This document shows, piece by piece, positions 12,348-59,785 of a stretch of 64,000 bases of DNA (position 1 is its first letter; every line of letters starts with the position of its first letter). Both the position numbers and the translations under genes were made by a program. The stretch comes from Bacteroidales bacterium (GTDB lineage Bacteria > Bacteroidota > Bacteroidia > Bacteroidales > Tenuifilaceae), in contig JAQVYY010000008.1 in the NCBI GenBank assembly GCA_028708425.1, positions 7,799-71,798 of the forward strand. The letters are read 5' to 3'. The notes below the pieces were generated by a model. It searched no databases, had not been told where the DNA came from, and saw only the letters and a program-made list of their open reading frames with translations.

Positions 12348-13172
12348 ATGAATACCATAGTTCGATTTATTGTAAGGTATCAATTCTTCTTGCTGTTTCT
12401 TGTGCTCGAAGCAATATCGTTTTGGATGCTTGGGAAACATACCTATTACCAGAACTCAAAATTCGAGGATGCTTACAGAGTGATGAGTGGGCATGCCAAT
12501 CAGTGCATTAGTAACGCAACAAGCTATTTTTCGCTTAAAGATGTTAACGACAATTTAGCTCAAGAAAACCTTGAATTAAAAAATAGATTGGCCATGCTAA
12601 ACGCTAAATACGATGCGCTTAGCAATTTACTTTACGATACCTTGGTTAGCCCAGGGCATAATTATACTCTGGCCCGTGTTGTTAATAATTCGGTTAATAA
12701 GCAGTACAACTACATCACACTAAATGTGGGGGCGAAAAATGGTATATGTAAAGAAATGGGAGTTATTACAAGCCAGGGTATTGTTGGGGTAGTTGTTGGC
12801 GTGTCCAACCATTTTTGTACCGTTATATCATTGCTAAATGTGGACCTGAAAATTTCGGCTAAGCTAAAGAGCACGAATCATTTTGGTTCGTTGTTTTGGA
12901 ATGGTACGAATTACCGAGAGGTGGTTTTAACCGATATACCCCAACACGCAAATATAAATTTAGGCGATACTATAGTTACAAGCGGGTATTCCTCAATCTT
13001 TCCGGCCGATATAGAGCTAGGTACTGTAAGTTCAATAGACAGTAAAGATTCAAATTTCCACTCGCTTACAGTAAAACTATTCTTGGATTTCAAGCAGCTG
13101 AATACCGTGTGGGCTGTGTCGCATAAGTTTGAGAATGAGCAAGGCAAGTTAGAAAGCATGCTAAATAATTAG
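12348..13172 (+). CDS. mreC: Rod shape-determining protein MreC
   Basis: N-terminal TM, coiled coil, GDTIVTSGYSSIFP; operon position. Confidence 0.93.
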   Translation: MNTIVRFIVRYQFFLLFLVLEAISFWMLGKHTYYQNSKFEDAYRVMSGHANQCISNATSYFSLKDVNDNLAQENLELKNRLAMLNAKYDALSNLLYDTLVSPGHNYTLARVVNNSVNKQYNYITLNVGAKNGICKEMGVITSQGIVGVVVGVSNHFCTVISLLNVDLKISAKLKSTNHFGSLFWNGTNYREVVLTDIPQHANINLGDTIVTSGYSSIFPADIELGTVSSIDSKDSNFHSLTVKLFLDFKQLNTVWAVSHKFENEQGKLESMLNN

Positions 13173-13175
13173 TAA

Positions 13176-13682
13176 ATGGCAAGAGATATTCTAAAATATA
13201 TAGGTTTATTTGTGCTACTGCTTTTCTTGCAGCTGTTTATATTTAATAATATACAGCTAAGTGGATACATCAATCCGTATATTTACATACTTTTTATACT
13301 GCTTTTGCCATACGAAATCTCGGGCTGGCTCTTGTTGGGACTAGCATTTATTACGGGTATTTGTGTAGACTCATTTATGAATACCTACGGAATGCATACG
13401 TCGGCAACGCTTTTATTAGCGTTTTTAAGGCCATACCTTTTAAGATTAATTTCGAGTAGGGAGGATGTTGATAAAAAAGGAAGCCCATCAATTTATTCCA
13501 ATGGTTTTACTTGGTTTCTCAAGTATGCCTTTTTTTTAACCCTTGCACATCATTTTATGCTCTTTTTTATCGAAAGTTTTACTTTTACAACTTTCTTTCA
13601 TACTTTGCTTAGGGTAGTTTTAAGCACAATAGTTACAACTAGTTTTATTCTGCTAAGCACTTTCCTGTTTAGTAAAAAGTAA
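13176..13682 (+). CDS. mreD: Rod shape-determining protein MreD
   Basis: Hydrophobic 168 aa, GYINPYIYILFILLLP; operon position. Confidence 0.9.
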   Translation: MARDILKYIGLFVLLLFLQLFIFNNIQLSGYINPYIYILFILLLPYEISGWLLLGLAFITGICVDSFMNTYGMHTSATLLLAFLRPYLLRLISSREDVDKKGSPSIYSNGFTWFLKYAFFLTLAHHFMLFFIESFTFTTFFHTLLRVVLSTIVTTSFILLSTFLFSKK

Positions 13683-13705
13683 ATATACAAATAGCCTTTT
13701 CTGAT

Positions 13706-15538
13706 TTGCAAACCGTAAGTACAGATAGACGTTATATTATAACTGGAATTGTTATTCTGGTTTTTGTTGCTATTGGTATACGCCTTTTTCATATTCAAAT
13801 TATCGACAGCTCGTATCGAATGTCAGCCAGCGGTAACGTGTTGCGCCATATTACTGAATATCCAGCCCGGGGGTTAATATTCGATCGTAATGGAAAGCTA
13901 TTGGTACACAATACTGTTGCGTACGATTTAATGGTGGTGCCGCATCAGGTGTCAGCTTTTGATACGGTTGAGTTTTGCTCGATCTTGGGGGTTTCGCAAG
14001 AATTTATAGAGAACGAACTGAAAAAGGCAAAAAAACATTCATCGTTCAGGCCCTCCATTCTTTTAAAACAGCTGTCGGCCGAGAACTATGCAGTACTTCA
14101 AGAAAAACTCTTTAAATACCCTGGGTTTTATGTGCAAACACGCTCATTGAGAGCCTATCCCGAAAAATCGGCAGCCCATATTTTAGGCTATGTTGGCGAA
14201 GTAGATGATAGGATAATTCACAGTAACCCATATTACAAGATGGGGGATTATATAGGAATATGTGGTTTAGAAAACACATACGAGGACGAGCTAAGAGGGA
14301 AAAAAGGGGTTAGCATTTACTTGGTAGATGTTCATAATAGGATAAAAGGTTCGTATGCTGATGGCCGGTTTGATACCCTTGCAGTGCTTGGAGAAAATTT
14401 ACATATCACAATTGATGCCGACCTGCAAAAGTATGGTGAAACGCTGATGCAAAATAAAATTGGAGGTATAGTTGCCATTGAGCCATCTACAGGCGAAATA
14501 CTTGCTGCCATTACGAGCCCTACGTATGATCCCAACCTGCTGGTAGGGCGTCCCCGAACCGAAAATTATCGAGTACTTGAAAGCGATACGGTAAAGCCAT
14601 TGTTTAATAGGGCGTTGATGGCGATGTATCCTCCTGGATCTACTTTTAAGGTTGTGAACGCTCTTATAGGGTTACAAGAGAATACAGTAACTCCACAAAC
14701 CCAATACGAATGCTATGGTCGTTATCCCATTGGTAGAGGTGTTGGGTGTCATAGCCATTTTTCGCCCACCAATTTGATCGAATCAATTCAGGTCTCGTGT
14801 AATACGTACTATTGCAATGTTTTTCGTAATATTATTGATAAACCTGCTTTTGGTGGGGTTGAGCAGGGGTTTACTGCTTGGAAAAACCATGTTGAATCGT
14901 TCGGATTTGGTAAAAAGTTGAACGTAGATCAGCCCAATGAGCTAGGTGGTATAGTACCAAGTATTGAGTTTTATAATCGTTATTTTAGAAAGGGAGGATG
15001 GAATTCACTCACCATATTGTCGTTAGCCATTGGGCAAGGAGAGCTGGGGGCAACGCCTCTTCAGATGGCAAATTTGGCAGCCACTATAGCTAACAGAGGA
15101 GAATACTATACACCTCACTACCTAAGGGGATTGGGGGATGGGAATTTTAAAGAGGCTCGTTTTTTAATGCCACACAGCACAACAATTGATTCGGTATGGT
15201 ACAGCTACATTGTTGAGGGAATGTATCGGGCTGTGAATGGGGGACAGGGTAGTACGGCCAGAATAGCTGCAATAAAAGGTATCGAAGTTTGTGGTAAAAC
15301 AGGAACTTCACAAAATCCACATGGTAAAGATCACTCGGTTTTTATAGCATTTGCTCCCAAGGAAAACCCTAAGATTGCCTTAGCTGTTTTTGTTGAAAAT
15401 GCGGGATTTGGTAGTACATGGGCTGCACCCATCGCTAGCCTTATGATTGAAAAATACTTAACAGGAGCGGTGAAACGAACCTGGCACGAGAATAGAATAC
15501 TTAATGCTAACTTATTAGATAGGCGTGAGGAGGAGTAG
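13706..15538 (+). CDS. mrdA: Penicillin-binding protein 2
   Basis: YPPGSTFK (SxxK), SCN (SxN) and KTGT motifs; start codon uncertain (TTG). Confidence 0.95.
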   Translation: MQTVSTDRRYIITGIVILVFVAIGIRLFHIQIIDSSYRMSASGNVLRHITEYPARGLIFDRNGKLLVHNTVAYDLMVVPHQVSAFDTVEFCSILGVSQEFIENELKKAKKHSSFRPSILLKQLSAENYAVLQEKLFKYPGFYVQTRSLRAYPEKSAAHILGYVGEVDDRIIHSNPYYKMGDYIGICGLENTYEDELRGKKGVSIYLVDVHNRIKGSYADGRFDTLAVLGENLHITIDADLQKYGETLMQNKIGGIVAIEPSTGEILAAITSPTYDPNLLVGRPRTENYRVLESDTVKPLFNRALMAMYPPGSTFKVVNALIGLQENTVTPQTQYECYGRYPIGRGVGCHSHFSPTNLIESIQVSCNTYYCNVFRNIIDKPAFGGVEQGFTAWKNHVESFGFGKKLNVDQPNELGGIVPSIEFYNRYFRKGGWNSLTILSLAIGQGELGATPLQMANLAATIANRGEYYTPHYLRGLGDGNFKEARFLMPHSTTIDSVWYSYIVEGMYRAVNGGQGSTARIAAIKGIEVCGKTGTSQNPHGKDHSVFIAFAPKENPKIALAVFVENAGFGSTWAAPIASLMIEKYLTGAVKRTWHENRILNANLLDRREEE

Positions 15539-56503: not shown

Positions 56504-57493
56504 ATGGCCTCGATGAATTTTGTTGATTATGTGAAGATCTTTTGCCGGTCGGGAAAAGGGGGTGCGGGTAGTACGCATCTTAGACGAGAAAAGTTTGTGC
56601 CTAAAGGTGGCCCCGATGGGGGCGACGGTGGGCGAGGAGGGCATGTTTACCTAAAGGGGAACGACCAGCTGTGGACTCTTATCCATTTAAAGTACCAACG
56701 ACACATTTTTGCTGGGCATGGGGCTGCTGGAAGTGGCAGCCGAAGCACAGGTGCCGATGGTAAGGATGTTACCATTGAGGTGCCTTTGGGAACCGTGGCT
56801 GTTGATGCTGAAACCAAGGAGGTGGTATGCGAAATTACCGAGCACGGACAGGAAATTGTTTTAAAGAAAGGCGGTAGGGGTGGCCTTGGAAACTGGCATT
56901 TTAAATCGTCCACCATGCAAACCCCCAGATTTGCGCAACCCGGTGAGGATAGTGTGGAGGGTTGGGTTATTCTTGAGCTGAAAATATTGGCCGACATTGG
57001 TTTGGTTGGCCTTCCGAATGCTGGTAAATCAACCCTGCTATCTACCATAACTGCTGCCAAACCCAAAATTGCCGACTATCCCTTTACAACGCTAGTCCCC
57101 AATCTAGGTATTGTACCCTATCGCAACGGCCGCTCGTTTGTTATTGCCGATATCCCTGGAATTATTGAGGGTGCTCACGAGGGTAAAGGGCTTGGGATCC
57201 GTTTTTTGCGACATATAGAGCGAAACTCGATGCTGCTTTTTATGATACCCATTGATAGCCCCAACATTATTGAGGAGTATAACACATTGATTAACGAGTT
57301 GAGCCAGTTTAATGTTGAGCTGCTCGATAAGCAGCGTATGCTAGCCATAACAAAGTGCGATATGGCCGATGATGAGATAAAAGCTGCGGTTGAAAAAGAG
57401 CTGCCCGACGTAAAAAGTGTTTTTATCTCATCGGTATCGGGCGAAGGGATTACTGAGCTAAAGGATATGCTTTGGGATGAGCTGAATGGTTGA
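56504..57493 (+). CDS. obgE: GTPase ObgE/CgtA
   Basis: [26 protein letters not shown] and DIPG motifs. Confidence 0.97.
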
Positions 57494-57504
57494 GACAGTT
57501 GATG

Positions 57505-57513
57505 GTTGAGTGC
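57505..57513 (+). other. Putative cassette core site GTTGAGTGC (GTTRRRY)
   Basis: Fits GTTRRRY and is nearly complementary (7/9) to GCACACAGC at the start of the downstream palindrome. Confidence 0.45.
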
Positions 57514-57585
57514 AAGCCTAAAAAAGACAGCAAAGCGACAGGAAACCAAAAAAACAGAGATAAAATAAACCTGTAGGTTGATTAA

Positions 57586-58110
57586 GTGAAAATAGTTCGT
57601 ATCTTTGCAGACCAATTATTTGCTTTTCATTATGAAACTGAGGCTGATAATGTGTTGCGTAAATTATTATCGTTATGGAACGATATAGCGCATTTACACC
57701 AGTTTGTCATGCGGCACAAAGCCGATGTGCCTCAAAACCTACCCATACCAACATTAATCAGTCAACTTATTGATAATGCAAACCACATTGATGATACGCT
57801 CAATGAAATATCAACAGCCCCACACAGGAGTTTGGAAGAATTTTTCAACCCCCTGAATAATCAAGAATACCACATTGTGGAACTATCGAAGCAGAAAGGA
57901 AGAAAGAACTATTTGAGATTATATGCGATTAGAATTGACAAGAACTGCTTTGTGATTACAGGTGGTGCAATAAAATTTCACCACTTAAACAGAGACCGGC
58001 CGCATACACAACAGGAAATGAAAAAAATAGACAAATGCCGAAATTACTTAAAAGACAATGGCGTATTTGATGTAGATTCATTTCATGAATTTTTAAAAGA
58101 ACAACAATGA
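57586..58110 (+). CDS. Putative HigB/RelE-superfamily toxin with N-terminal extension (TAC toxin)
   Basis: C-terminal LRLYAIRIDKNCFVITGGAIK...QEMKKIDKCRNYL resembles the Gp49/HigB pattern; first gene of a coupled trio. Confidence 0.6.
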   Translation: MKIVRIFADQLFAFHYETEADNVLRKLLSLWNDIAHLHQFVMRHKADVPQNLPIPTLISQLIDNANHIDDTLNEISTAPHRSLEEFFNPLNNQEYHIVELSKQKGRKNYLRLYAIRIDKNCFVITGGAIKFHHLNRDRPHTQQEMKKIDKCRNYLKDNGVFDVDSFHEFLKEQQ

Positions 58111-58568
58111 CAAACAAGGAGAAATTACTTCAGCTAGTTTCAGGAGAAGACACCAAAACAATCGCTGAGGTAAAGCAGCGAATAAAAAGCCGTGCAATGT
58201 TGCATGAATCGCAACAAATTGCCATAAAGGTGTTTATGAAATTAGACGAATTAGGTTGGTCGCAAAAAGACTTAGCGAAAGAAATGGGAGTCTCTCCACA
58301 ACAAATCACAAAAATCGTAAGCGGTAAAGAAAACCTAACCATTGAAACGCAAATCAAGTTGCAGCATATTTTGAATATCCCTGTATTGGCAAGCTACTAC
58401 GAAAACAAAATGGCTGAAATGGAAGAATGGATTCTAACTATTGAAAAGCGGGTAGAAAGCATAGCTGCACAAACGTTACACATCAGCGACAATTATCAGG
58501 CTACTAAAACCGTGAGATTGGAAACTTATCATTATTCACAAGAGTTCTATCAACTTCTAGCTGTATAA
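58107..58568 (+). CDS. XRE-family HTH antitoxin (HigA-like) with C-terminal tail
   Basis: WSQKDLAKEMGVSPQQITKIVSGKENLTIETQIKLQHILN helix-turn-helix; ATGA overlap with the toxin. Confidence 0.85.
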   Translation: MTNKEKLLQLVSGEDTKTIAEVKQRIKSRAMLHESQQIAIKVFMKLDELGWSQKDLAKEMGVSPQQITKIVSGKENLTIETQIKLQHILNIPVLASYYENKMAEMEEWILTIEKRVESIAAQTLHISDNYQATKTVRLETYHYSQEFYQLLAV

Positions 58569-59014
58569 TGAAAAAAAATAACACACAAGTAGAGTTTGCA
58601 TTGCAAGGAATAAAAACCGAGCAATTCGCCATTTTTGAAGAAAACTATGCCTCTAAAAAAGAAACAGGTTTAAGCACTGAATTACAGTTTAAACTAGACC
58701 AAAAAAACAAACAGATTGGAGTGTTTCTTGGGTTTGAATTTATTCAGGGAAAAAAGATTTTTCTGAAGATTCAAGTTAGCTGCCATTTTAAGATTAAAGA
58801 AAATTCTTGGACACATTTTATTCAGGAAGAGAGCAACAAACTAGTTGTACCCAAAATATTTTTGGCACATTTAGCAATGATAACCACAGGTACAACAAGG
58901 GGTGTATTATTTGCAAAAACAGAGTCAACACCATTTTATAAATTTATCGTTCCAACATTAAATGTAGCTGAAATGATTAAAGAAGATGCTACGTTTGATA
59001 TGGTTGTTGAATAA
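58568..59014 (+). CDS. SecB-like chaperone (TAC chaperone)
   Basis: 148 aa, four-strand then helix pattern; C-terminal FLAHLAMITTGTTRGVLFAKTESTPFYKFIVPTLNV parallels the SecB helix and LP.xN motif; TAATG overlap. Confidence 0.7.
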   Translation: MKKNNTQVEFALQGIKTEQFAIFEENYASKKETGLSTELQFKLDQKNKQIGVFLGFEFIQGKKIFLKIQVSCHFKIKENSWTHFIQEESNKLVVPKIFLAHLAMITTGTTRGVLFAKTESTPFYKFIVPTLNVAEMIKEDATFDMVVE

Positions 59015-59040
59015 TGGACGAATTATAAAACAGAACGCCA

Positions 59041-59175
59041 GCACACAGCATGGGTTTTGCTTTAGGCGGTGGGACGTGCAAACTTGATGTTTTGCGCTTC
59101 TATTTAAATTTTTTGCTGGCTCACAGTCTTGTGTTCCGAAACCCGCCCGAGCGTAAAACCCGGAAACCGTTAGTT
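59041..59175 (+). other. attC-like imperfect palindrome (135 bp)
   Basis: GCACACAGC...GGGTTTTGCTTTAGGCGG / CCGCCCGAGCGTAAAACCC...GTTAGTT; begins 27 bp after the chaperone stop. Confidence 0.55.
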
Positions 59176-59215
59176 TAACAACATATTGAAACTCTAATTC
59201 CGTAAACCTAGTACT

Positions 59216-59785
59216 ATGCTCGAGTGGATTTTGAATTTAGATACGCAGCTTTTCCTTTTCTTAAACGCGCTGCACACCCCTTTTTTCGACCCCATAATGA
59301 TTTTTATGTCGGGTAAGTTAACGTGGTTACCCCTTTACCTAATCATTGTGCTATTTATGTATAAGCGCTTTGGGTGGCGATTTGTTTGGCCCCTGCTGGG
59401 GATAGCGTTGGTTGTTGTTTTGGCCGATCAAAGCTCGGTACATCTATTTAAGGATGTTTTTCAGCGTTTGCGCCCTTGTCGTAATCCTGATATTAAGGAC
59501 TTAATTTACTTGCCAACTGGGCGCTGTGCTGGTGGTAGGTTTGGTTTTGTATCATCGCATGCAGCTAATGTATTTGGTGTGGCAACTTGCTTGGCGTTGC
59601 TGATAAAAAAACGCTGGTTTTCCATTCTTATATTGATTTGGGCTGCCCTAGTTTCGTATAGCCGCATTTATCTTGGGGCGCACTACCCCGGCGATGTGAT
59701 CTTTGGCGCCATCCTAGGCGCTATTGTTGGCTACTCGGTATGGAATTTGCTCTATGGTATAAACCGCGTAAAGCCAATACTGTAG
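59216..59785 (+). CDS. PAP2 family phosphatase
   Basis: KDVFQRLRP, FVSSHAAN and SRIYLGAHYPGD motifs. Confidence 0.92.
   Translation: MLEWILNLDTQLFLFLNALHTPFFDPIMIFMSGKLTWLPLYLIIVLFMYKRFGWRFVWPLLGIALVVVLADQSSVHLFKDVFQRLRPCRNPDIKDLIYLPTGRCAGGRFGFVSSHAANVFGVATCLALLIKKRWFSILILIWAALVSYSRIYLGAHYPGDVIFGAILGAIVGYSVWNLLYGINRVKPIL

Follow-up and report, generated by a model that had tools for sequence, protein, structure and literature searches.

A low-GC island lies between obg and a PAP2 gene

The DNA analyzed in this study is a 64,000-nucleotide (nt) stretch of contig JAQVYY010000008.1 (positions 7,799 to 71,798, forward strand; assembly GCA_028708425.1) from a Bacteroidales bacterium of the family Tenuifilaceae, and this whole stretch is referred to below as the window. 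Between obg and a gene encoding a PAP2-family phosphatase, the window contains a 1.66-kb island of low GC content (57506-59169) that comprises three genes and closes with a long, attC-like imperfect palindrome. An initial annotation of this DNA had proposed that the island is a solo gene cassette of the integron type, and the landmarks that it named were all present in the sequence: an upstream core GTTGAGTGC at 57505-57513; a palindrome start GCACACAGC at 59040-59048, 26 nt past the last island stop codon (59012-59014); two pairing arms; and a terminal G|TTAGTT at 59169-59175. The GC content of the three island genes is 31-38%, that of the two flanking genes is 45-48%, and that of the genome is 40.5%. 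The PAP2 gene was found in 41 of 41 relatives, and obg is directly upstream of it in 15 of them. The genes of the locus are as follows:

56504..57493, + strand: obg (GTPase ObgE), left flank; Pfam GTP1_OBG (8e-59) and MMR_HSR1
57586..58110, + strand: gene 1, 174 amino acids (aa), putative toxin; no Pfam family
58107..58568, + strand: gene 2, 153 aa, HTH_3 (Xre-type) protein, putative antitoxin; Pfam HTH_3 (3.6e-12, residues 46-92)
58568..59014, + strand: gene 3, 148 aa, SecB-fold chaperone-like protein; AlphaFold (pLDDT 90.7) and Foldseek
59216..59785, + strand: PAP2-family phosphatase gene, right flank; Pfam PAP2 (1.8e-24)

The palindrome belongs to a site family found across Bacteroidales

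The BLASTN search suggested in the initial annotation was unproductive within the genome itself, where the palindrome matched only itself, and productive among relatives, where 71%-identical copies were found after unrelated genes in two other genera. Both of these copies read TAAC where the window reads CAGC. A covariance model (R1) was built from three copies, the window's own included, and was searched against 301 genomes sampled across the order; the site family was detected in 135 of these genomes and in 113 of 209 genera, and many genomes contained several sites, 0.4-3 kb apart and on a single strand. A second covariance model (R2) was trained on 47 sequences taken from the R1 hits. The features of the window site are as follows:

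59042..59180, + strand: attC-like site, whole model match and sole copy in the window; R1 138.1 bits, R2 111.5 bits (E 2e-23), scores that are partly by construction, since the window copy helped to build both models (one of the 47 training sequences of R2)
59046..59050, + strand: R''-equivalent core, degenerate, CAGCA where the family has TAACA (family alignment)
59052..59069, + strand: 5' arm of the outer helix, GGGTTTTGCTTTAGGCGG (GGGTTTTGC..GGCGG), pairing with 59143-59161
59076..59097, + strand: inner hairpin, GTGCAAAC...GTTTTGCGC, then TTCTATTT (family helix 2; matched in a terminator-like scan)
59143..59161, + strand: 3' arm of the outer helix, CCGCCCGAGCGTAAAACCC (CCGCC..GCGTAAAACCC) (family helix 1)

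In a three-sequence alignment, the window site showed 80% column identity with two copies from other families of the order. The 47 hits align at a constant length of 136-141 nt, with the consensus CCnnTAACAnGGGTTTTGCGTCAGGCGGGGTGACGTGCnAAnTTGnAGCTTTGTGCTTCTATTCAAGTTTAGTGCTGGTTGACAGTTTTGTGCTCCGAAACCCGCCCGAACGCAAAGCCCnAAAACGTTA, and their ends are conserved as TAAC...CGTTA; the AAC and CGTT columns are conserved in at least 90% of copies, and the T before AAC in about 75%. The R' core of the window site is GTTAG. The 18-bp outer helix was 95.6% paired in 44 distinct copies, and compensatory changes were present at 17 of its 18 pairs. In this alignment, which was itself fitted to the model, the covariation score was 0.398; slid partners reached at most 0.07, and none of 500 shuffles attained the observed value. 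The 3' arm of the window site exceeds the 5' arm by one base, so that a bulge is implied, and the same one-base excess, with fixed mismatch positions, is seen consistently throughout the family. No Rfam family matches in the region.

The fold check put forward in the initial annotation gave no support, as the window palindrome folds as a single strand no better than shuffled sequences on either strand (z 0.09 and 0.59). Fold energy is not a useful test where a long-range stem encloses a large interior. Judged from the alignments, homology and covariation, not fold energy, lift the palindrome above chance. The earlier proposal of a cassette with a split site and an attC-like hairpin at its 3' end is supported.

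The center of the site (59076-59140) is also conserved in sequence and contains four (A/T)GTGC(T) motifs spaced about 18-19 nt apart. The first of these motifs lies within the inner hairpin, which is terminator-like and is followed by TTCTATT. The GTGC motifs may be candidate binding sites for the extra N-terminal domain of the recombinase described below.

Site arrays are linked to a tyrosine recombinase that differs from IntI

Arrays of these sites lie 0.5-2.5 kb from a tyrosine recombinase gene in the complete genome G317 and in G024, G170, G207, G232, and G265. The initial annotation had proposed looking for the palindrome after unrelated genes and near a tyrosine recombinase, and both were found. 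The recombinase is related to Xer and IntI, is about 380-410 aa in length, and is composed of an N-terminal extension of ~90-140 aa, a SAM_4 core-binding domain, and a Phage_integrase catalytic domain. Its best NCBIfam matches were the XerA/integron-integrase and the integron-integrase models, both below cut-off; against the integron-integrase model TIGR02249, the array-linked recombinases scored 195-198 bits, with a cut-off of 265.

Integron integrases are defined by an extra segment, the IntI-specific domain around patch III, that binds extrahelical bases. In the array-linked recombinases the TIGR02249 match was split in two, skipping model positions 179-238 with only ~20 residues between the pieces, and BLASTP alignment with a true IntI2 produced gaps of 21 and 12 aa at the same place; on the strength of the split match and these gaps, the IntI-specific segment is judged to be absent from the recombinase. 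According to Smyshlyaev et al., the insertion lacks full conservation within the integron-like subgroup of tyrosine recombinases. The description of the island as an integron-type cassette is accordingly apt for its attC-like layout and not for the recombinase of the system, which scores below the integrase cut-off and lacks the IntI-specific segment.

To relate sites and recombinase, presence of the latter was scored at E <= 1e-50 in the 301 genomes. Both were found in 88 genomes, sites only in 47, the recombinase only in 44, and neither in 122, corresponding to an odds ratio of 5.2 with a p value of 1.7e-11 that is uncorrected for phylogeny. Furthermore, 80 recombinase loci from named genomes were scanned with R2 over at most 10 kb on each side. 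All of the sites at these loci (71/71) were on the recombinase strand, with 70 sites in 172 kb of downstream sequence and one in 608 kb of upstream sequence (binomial p 6e-45). A site was present at 32 of the 42 loci that had at least 700 nt of downstream sequence, and the first site lay 0.5-6.8 kb past the recombinase gene. The contig broke less than 300 nt after the recombinase gene at 34 of the 80 loci, which is expected if a repeat array starts past the recombinase. Hosts within Bacteroidales include Rikenellaceae, Tenuifilaceae, Lentimicrobiaceae, Prolixibacteraceae, and Perlabentimonas; other Bacteroidota hosts are Flavobacterium (with an array in Flavobacterium sp. NZ_OZ260089), Pedobacter aquatilis CECT 7114 (NZ_JAUFPW010000003), Saprospiraceae, Algoriphagus, and a metagenome-assembled genome labeled Spirosoma, and Ignavibacteria are also among the hosts.

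A motif, ...ATAAAC(A/G)AG|TTAnnnGCAAG..., is shared by 12 loci about 100-120 nt after the recombinase stop codon, with short repeats before it, and is read as a putative attI-like insertion site. In its usual setting, the platform would be made up of a dedicated Xer/IntI-related recombinase, an attI-like site, and a co-oriented array in which one attC-like site closes each cassette. A distant recombinase subfamily (359 aa, 40% identical; G170:C7 and G207:C1) is transcribed divergently from its cassettes, the first of which encodes a Fic-domain protein; together with the co-oriented loci, this subfamily indicates that both gene orders exist.

The genome of the window encodes matching machinery in trans

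The initial annotation had described the cassette as solo, beside obg and with no integrase in the window. This was borne out: R2 has a single match in the window, no integrase gene was found in the 64 kb, and neither a recombinase nor an array remnant was found at the locus. The genome likewise has no IntI, the best TIGR02249 match being 115 bits per segment. Two copies of the array-type recombinase, each of 378 aa and 91% mutually identical, are encoded on contigs C15 and C79, so that matching machinery is present in trans. On C79 (114-3353) the order is recombinase, attI-like motif (...ACAAGTAAG|TTGTGTAGCAT), a gene for a 375-aa thioredoxin-like lipoprotein, its site (49.5 bits), a gene for a 66-aa membrane protein, and a second site (30 bits); with default filters, the search detected neither of the two sites. 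On C15 the recombinase gene (12489-13712) is at the contig end, and the contig stops no more than 2 nt from the predicted attI-like crossover (...ACAAGTAAGTT). The genome holds seven sites in all, and the six besides that of the window, which required the covariance models for their detection, include sites on C2, C6, C56, and C11 in addition to those on C79.

An IntI in the close relative G007 was considered as the missing integrase and rejected. It is a class 2 IntI2, 99.9% identical to enterobacterial plasmid copies, on a 4-kb contig (G007:C97:1-4144) that also holds a tRNA-Ser and a P4-type integrase gene and has gamma-proteobacterial neighbors; from this content, the contig is almost certainly a mis-binned proteobacterial one. 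Apart from this contaminant, TIGR02249 had no match above cut-off in the 61 genomes tested, 20 of which are array-rich.

The obg-PAP2 junction holds different inserts in related genomes

The junction was surveyed in 41 related genomes by a protein search with PAP2 followed by tblastn with Obg. The gap between obg and PAP2 was only 5-70 bp in the 15 relatives mentioned above (eight same-genus genomes and seven other-genus genomes of the family), and these short junctions showed no trace of an attC-like site; in two genomes the region was rearranged, with RecJ upstream of PAP2. By this comparison, the island is an insertion relative to the 15 related genomes. The comparison of the obg-PAP2 junction, which had been proposed in the initial annotation, was informative in this respect, but a clean fused junction of the predicted kind was not found.

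The junction carries other inserts in two same-genus genomes. The closest relative, G007 (PAP2 89% identical), has an insert that encodes a 148-aa membrane-anchored protein, and the insert of G001 encodes a ParD/ParE pair and a small lipoprotein. Each insert closes with a palindrome of ~140 nt ending in CCGTTA. The G007 palindrome is a family site (R2 31 bits, E 7e-7, filters off); the G001 palindrome is weak against R2 (16 bits) and has the same layout by eye.

A further arrangement was observed in a sediment metagenome (run X19), in which a 1.7-kb contig of depth 9 is identical to the last 494 nt of obg, leaves the window sequence at 57493/57494, and continues as AGAATTGAAGTTATATCTGTAAGTGGGGTT... 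for 171 nt. This contig is an alternative junction allele in a co-occurring strain.

The cassette ends resemble the products of site-specific insertion

The ends of the island were examined with a weight matrix for which 39 family sites supplied the 9 nt downstream of GTT, the bases with which, in arrays, the following cassette begins. The features at the two ends are as follows:

57486-57494 (across the obg stop codon) and 57502-57510 (across the left crossover), + strand: 9-nt direct repeat ATGGTTGAG, two copies 16 nt apart (read from the sequence)
57505..57516, + strand: left junction G|TTGAGTGCAAG, predicted crossover followed by the cassette's own distal R' bases (weight matrix)
59169..59180, + strand: right junction G|TTAGTTTAACA, R' core and predicted crossover, beyond which the bases would be those of the target (CGTT at least 90% conserved in the family)

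The left junction GTTGAGTGCAAG at 57505 scored 4.56 bits and ranked 26th among the 2544 GTTs in the window, and the other GTTs after obg scored -6 to -10. The right junction GTTAGTTTAACA scored -3.98, which is background. The left junction therefore fits the cassette-start consensus and the right junction resembles background, as site-specific insertion predicts; with about four GTTs to choose from, the p value of the test on the left junction is ~0.04. The left junction also agrees at 11 of 12 bases with cassette starts in locus L050 and on contig C6 of the same genome. The right cassette end is, by the family model, which CGTTA closes, well defined, and homology with the right flank of G007 resumes at CATATTG (59183), 13 nt downstream. 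From these ends, the empty junction is predicted to read ...GATGG|TTAGTTTAAC..., or, as reconstructed, ...GACAGTTGATGG|TTAGTTTAACAAC..., and the junction of a circular cassette is predicted to read ...AACCG|TTGAGTGC....

Two sequence matches were observed around the crossovers. A 10-mer, TTTAACAACA, at 59174-59183, just past the right crossover, is also found ~45 nt upstream of the attI-like crossover on C15 and C79 and in Perlabentimonas gracilis (chance expectation ~0.005). A 9-mer match between the left flank and the attI-like loop of C15 was set aside, as an alignment of 12 regions puts the conserved crossover elsewhere.

The cassette is stable in environmental populations

Public metagenomes sampled between 2016 and 2025 from landfills, sediments, sludge, digesters, and manure contained the stretch nearly unchanged in more than 20 cases, with ~0.6% single-nucleotide polymorphism (SNP) divergence of the cassette between samples. 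In eight runs that were examined, the island was present at the depth of its flanks with SNP-level variation. The start codon of gene 1 (57586) is GTG in the window and ATG in other strains, and the G at 59162, in the 3' spacer of the site, is missing in the X16 and X17 strains, a loss that restores the family consensus. No strain variant was found at the CAGC core in the eight runs. The initial annotation had noted the degenerate R'' core and suggested possible immobilization; because of the degenerate 5' core (CAGC in place of TAAC) and the fixation in more than 20 metagenomes, the window cassette is probably immobilized.

The island is probably a solo cassette of an integron-like system

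We consider it probable that 57506-59169 is one solo cassette belonging to an integron-like system that is common both in Bacteroidales and elsewhere in Bacteroidota, and that it has a history of insertion at a secondary GTT. The window cassette would have been excised as a circle, and a recombinase acting in trans would have inserted this circle by recombining the attC-like site with a secondary GTT located 12 nt beyond the stop codon of obg, presumably with single-stranded DNA as the substrate. Such an insertion would leave the distal core bases of the cassette at the left junction and target bases at the right. An addiction module among the cassette genes would select for retention, and the cassette would now act as a set of genes fixed in the chromosome, with expression probably by read-through from obg.

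Several observations weigh against this reading. Recombination by this recombinase family is itself predicted. R2 was trained on the hits of R1, the covariation alignment was fitted to the model, and the palindrome gained no support from its fold energy. In the window, the junction consensus test reaches only modest significance (~0.04), and it fails to separate left from right in G007 or G001. A weak, A-rich similarity between the window and G007 (z ~4) extends over the first ~60 nt past the junction, which could place the true left end nearer gene 1. An attC-like site is near none of the 11 homologous three-gene modules examined in other genomes, so that there is no second context to fix the cassette ends. 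A clean empty obg-PAP2 site was not recovered in any strain or relative examined, nor in a scan of metagenome contigs with the obg 3' end, from which close records may have been missing; the eight metagenome runs showed neither an empty site nor a circle nor an alternative joint, although rare forms would be hidden in contigs. Lastly, divergence of the X19 allele begins immediately past the stop codon of obg, 12 nt short of the proposed crossover. The earlier claim of insertion at a secondary GTT is favored by the junction consensus and by the different cassettes in two relatives, but the empty junction that it predicts was never observed.

It is unlikely, in our assessment, that the site family is real and the island was nevertheless brought in, flanks included, through homologous recombination, or is all that is left of a variable region or array of greater age. 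The missing empty site, the fixed state of the cassette with its low SNP divergence, the weak leader similarity to G007, and the X19 allele, whose point of departure is the stop codon of obg instead of the proposed crossover, would all be compatible with such a history, and three species with different content at one junction also fit a long-lived variable spot exchanged via conserved flanks. On the other hand, a variable region of long standing is hard to reconcile with the 15 junctions of 5-70 bp, in eight same-genus and seven other-genus genomes, that retain no trace of a site; the left junction bears the cassette-start consensus exactly where a site-specific event predicts it; and no remnant of a recombinase or array was found at the locus.

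An incidental association between the palindrome and the cassette is very improbable. The palindrome would then be an RNA-level element (a terminator or 3'-UTR (untranslated region) structure) or a selfish repeat such as a miniature transposable element, and indeed the inner hairpin with its T-rich tail fits the terminator pattern, and the elements always follow co-oriented genes. Against this, there is one copy in the window and seven in the genome; terminal inverted repeats and target duplications are absent from the elements; the elements keep a strict orientation and position relative to the recombinase gene; their length is constant, their AAC/GTT ends are conserved, and their 18-bp covarying helix far exceeds terminator size; and no Rfam family matches.

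Least probable of all is a canonical integron cassette (a SALIN) moved by a true IntI that is now absent or in another organism, an explanation that draws on the attC-cassette layout, on the commonness of solo attC cassettes in genomes (10.1101/2022.09.11.507474), and on the full-scoring IntI in one same-genus assembly, but that fails because this IntI is the contaminant IntI2 on a 4-kb contig, the 61 tested genomes otherwise lack a TIGR02249 hit over cut-off, the sites show tight, directional linkage to another recombinase, and IntegronFinder surveys show almost no integrons in Bacteroidetes. As far as the site and the linked recombinase tell, the window cassette is not that of a canonical integron.

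Beyond the solo-cassette reading of the island, a broader account can be offered tentatively, as a possibility that we would not yet favor in its entirety. Bacteroidota and Ignavibacteria may run their own integron-type capture system, built on a recombinase in which the IntI I2 segment either was lost or was absent from the start. The core-binding and catalytic domains would read the 138-nt site at the TAAC/GTTA helix, and the N-terminal domain would bind the four GTGC repeats like arm-type sites. The recombinase would also seed secondary sites of the chromosome with single cassettes, repeatedly targeting the obg 3' end in the genus, and addiction modules such as that of the window would thereby become fixed beside essential genes.

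The cargo resembles a toxin-antitoxin-chaperone module

Gene 2 overlaps gene 1 by 4 nt and abuts gene 3. No sigma-70-type or Bacteroidota-type promoter-like motif was found between obg and gene 1 in a motif scan, and no terminator was found there in a terminator-like scan; for these reasons, read-through from obg would be the simplest explanation for expression of the genes. The predicted structure of gene 3 matched SecB of E. coli and H. influenzae in Foldseek (TM 0.60-0.66, prob 1.00), as well as Rv1957, the SecB-like chaperone of a toxin-antitoxin-chaperone (TAC) system in M. tuberculosis (TM 0.44-0.51, prob 1.00); gene 3 had no Pfam match, and a PDB profile search with its homologues was also empty. 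Gene 2 has a C-terminal extension of ~60 aa. The model of gene 1 was poor (pLDDT 67), and a fold search with it gave no significant match, the best plausible one being a weak resemblance to a HigBA toxin chain at E 1.3. The three-gene module is conserved, with gene 1 first, in 24 of the 301 genomes.

The island genes share with the M. tuberculosis HigB1-HigA1-Rv1957 system the order of a putative toxin, a putative HTH (helix-turn-helix) antitoxin with a C-terminal extension, and a SecB-fold protein, as well as genes that overlap or abut; unlike that system, gene 1 matches no recognizable toxin family. A TAC reading of genes 1-3, shown for only one of the three parts, is reasonable. A TAC module carried on an attC-type cassette was not encountered in the literature searched, which targeted integrons rather than TAC systems.

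Comparison with known gene-capture systems

Integrons are a textbook route by which bacteria collect and shuffle accessory genes. The sedentary chromosomal integron of Vibrio cholerae, for example, has VCR attC sites of ~120-130 nt. The Bacteroidota system resembles integrons in that one tyrosine recombinase gene heads the system with an insertion site adjoining, followed by an array of co-oriented, mostly single-gene, unrelated cassettes, each closed by an AAC...GTT imperfect palindrome whose structure is conserved over its sequence. Other likenesses are a near-constant site length within a lineage, frequent toxin-antitoxin cassettes, and group II intron and insertion sequence (IS) insertions at the sites; co-orientation of the recombinase gene and the cassettes recalls the 'inverted integrase' integrons. 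The differences lie in the recombinase, which has no IntI-specific insertion, carries an extra N-terminal domain of ~100-140 aa, and is usually upstream of the array and co-oriented with it; in the site center, which is conserved and non-palindromic, with four GTGC motifs and a terminator-like inner hairpin; and in the host phylum, where surveys found almost no integrons. Moreover, recombination is known for integrons and is predicted for the Bacteroidota system. In IntegronFinder 2.0, Bacteroidetes had earlier only In0 elements, plus one complete integron in Salinibacter.

For classical integrons, SALINs and attG genomic insertion sites were defined by Loot et al. (10.1101/2022.09.11.507474). 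The window locus is similar in that a lone cassette, bearing one attC-type site and remote from arrays and integrases, occupies a short chromosomal site containing GTT/GWT, and in an insertion near a host promoter that makes expression from outside possible. One site with no integrase nearby, the mark of a SALIN, was found here in layout only, as the system is non-IntI. SALINs and attG sites were defined for IntI-type integrases, whereas the recombinase family of the window system differs, and here three species appear to use the same obg-PAP2 junction for different cassettes by an insertion that is inferred.

In pdif modules of Acinetobacter plasmids and in IMEX elements, XerC/D acting at dif moves gene modules bounded by short sites; their recombinases are the housekeeping XerC/D, and each module has a 28-bp double-stranded dif-like site at either end. 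What they have in common with the present system is that Xer/IntI-branch recombinases lacking the IntI insertion move, or would move, discrete gene modules. The present system differs in that its recombinase is dedicated to it, each cassette has a single long hairpin site, and the arrays are ordered.

Full-text literature searches turned up no description of these arrays, of the sites, or of the role of the recombinase, and the suspicion raised in the initial annotation, that this is an under-described cassette system, is for these recombinase-linked arrays probably correct. The system appears to apply integron logic to different parts, namely a recombinase, an insertion site, and hairpin-closed cassettes in ordered arrays. 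It is found in ~45% of the sampled genomes of one large order and extends to other Bacteroidota and Ignavibacteria; in Bacteroidota, surveys built on the definition by the IntI segment find next to nothing. If the recombinase works as predicted, the range of integron-type gene capture widens, hairpin-site recognition without an I2 helix becomes a reopened question, and a large unexplored pool of cassette genes becomes visible, including toxin-antitoxin and likely defense genes. The window adds that cassettes may also reside singly at ordinary chromosomal sites, recurrently at obg-PAP2, in parallel to the attG/SALIN route.

Additional observations on the sites and arrays

On C11 (9300-10740) of the genome of the window, pepT and a dehydrogenase gene enclose a ParE-like toxin-antitoxin pair with an attC-like site (45 bits) after it, flanked by three copies of another repeat of ~180 nt (...TATAACACACCGCCCTGCAGGGGCCGGTTAACAAC...). 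This locus was considered as a cleaner example of a solo cassette and was dropped, as it is cluttered by the other repeat family. Sites were also seen to start ~45-85 nt from a contig end in G112, G095, G271, G223, and G052.

In the complete genome G317, long runs of sites occur every ~440 nt with no open reading frame (ORF) of at least 50 aa on the cassette strand; these runs may be tandem copies of an ORF-less or micro-ORF cassette. The array in this genome is interrupted by two copies of an IS91-family transposase gene, each with its own 306-aa tyrosine recombinase. In the genome of the window, a group II intron reverse transcriptase gene on C2 (1562-3571), on the opposite strand, abuts the 5' end of an attC-like site that has CACACA in place of TAAC, and this arrangement of intron and site resembles the group IIC-attC introns of classical integrons.

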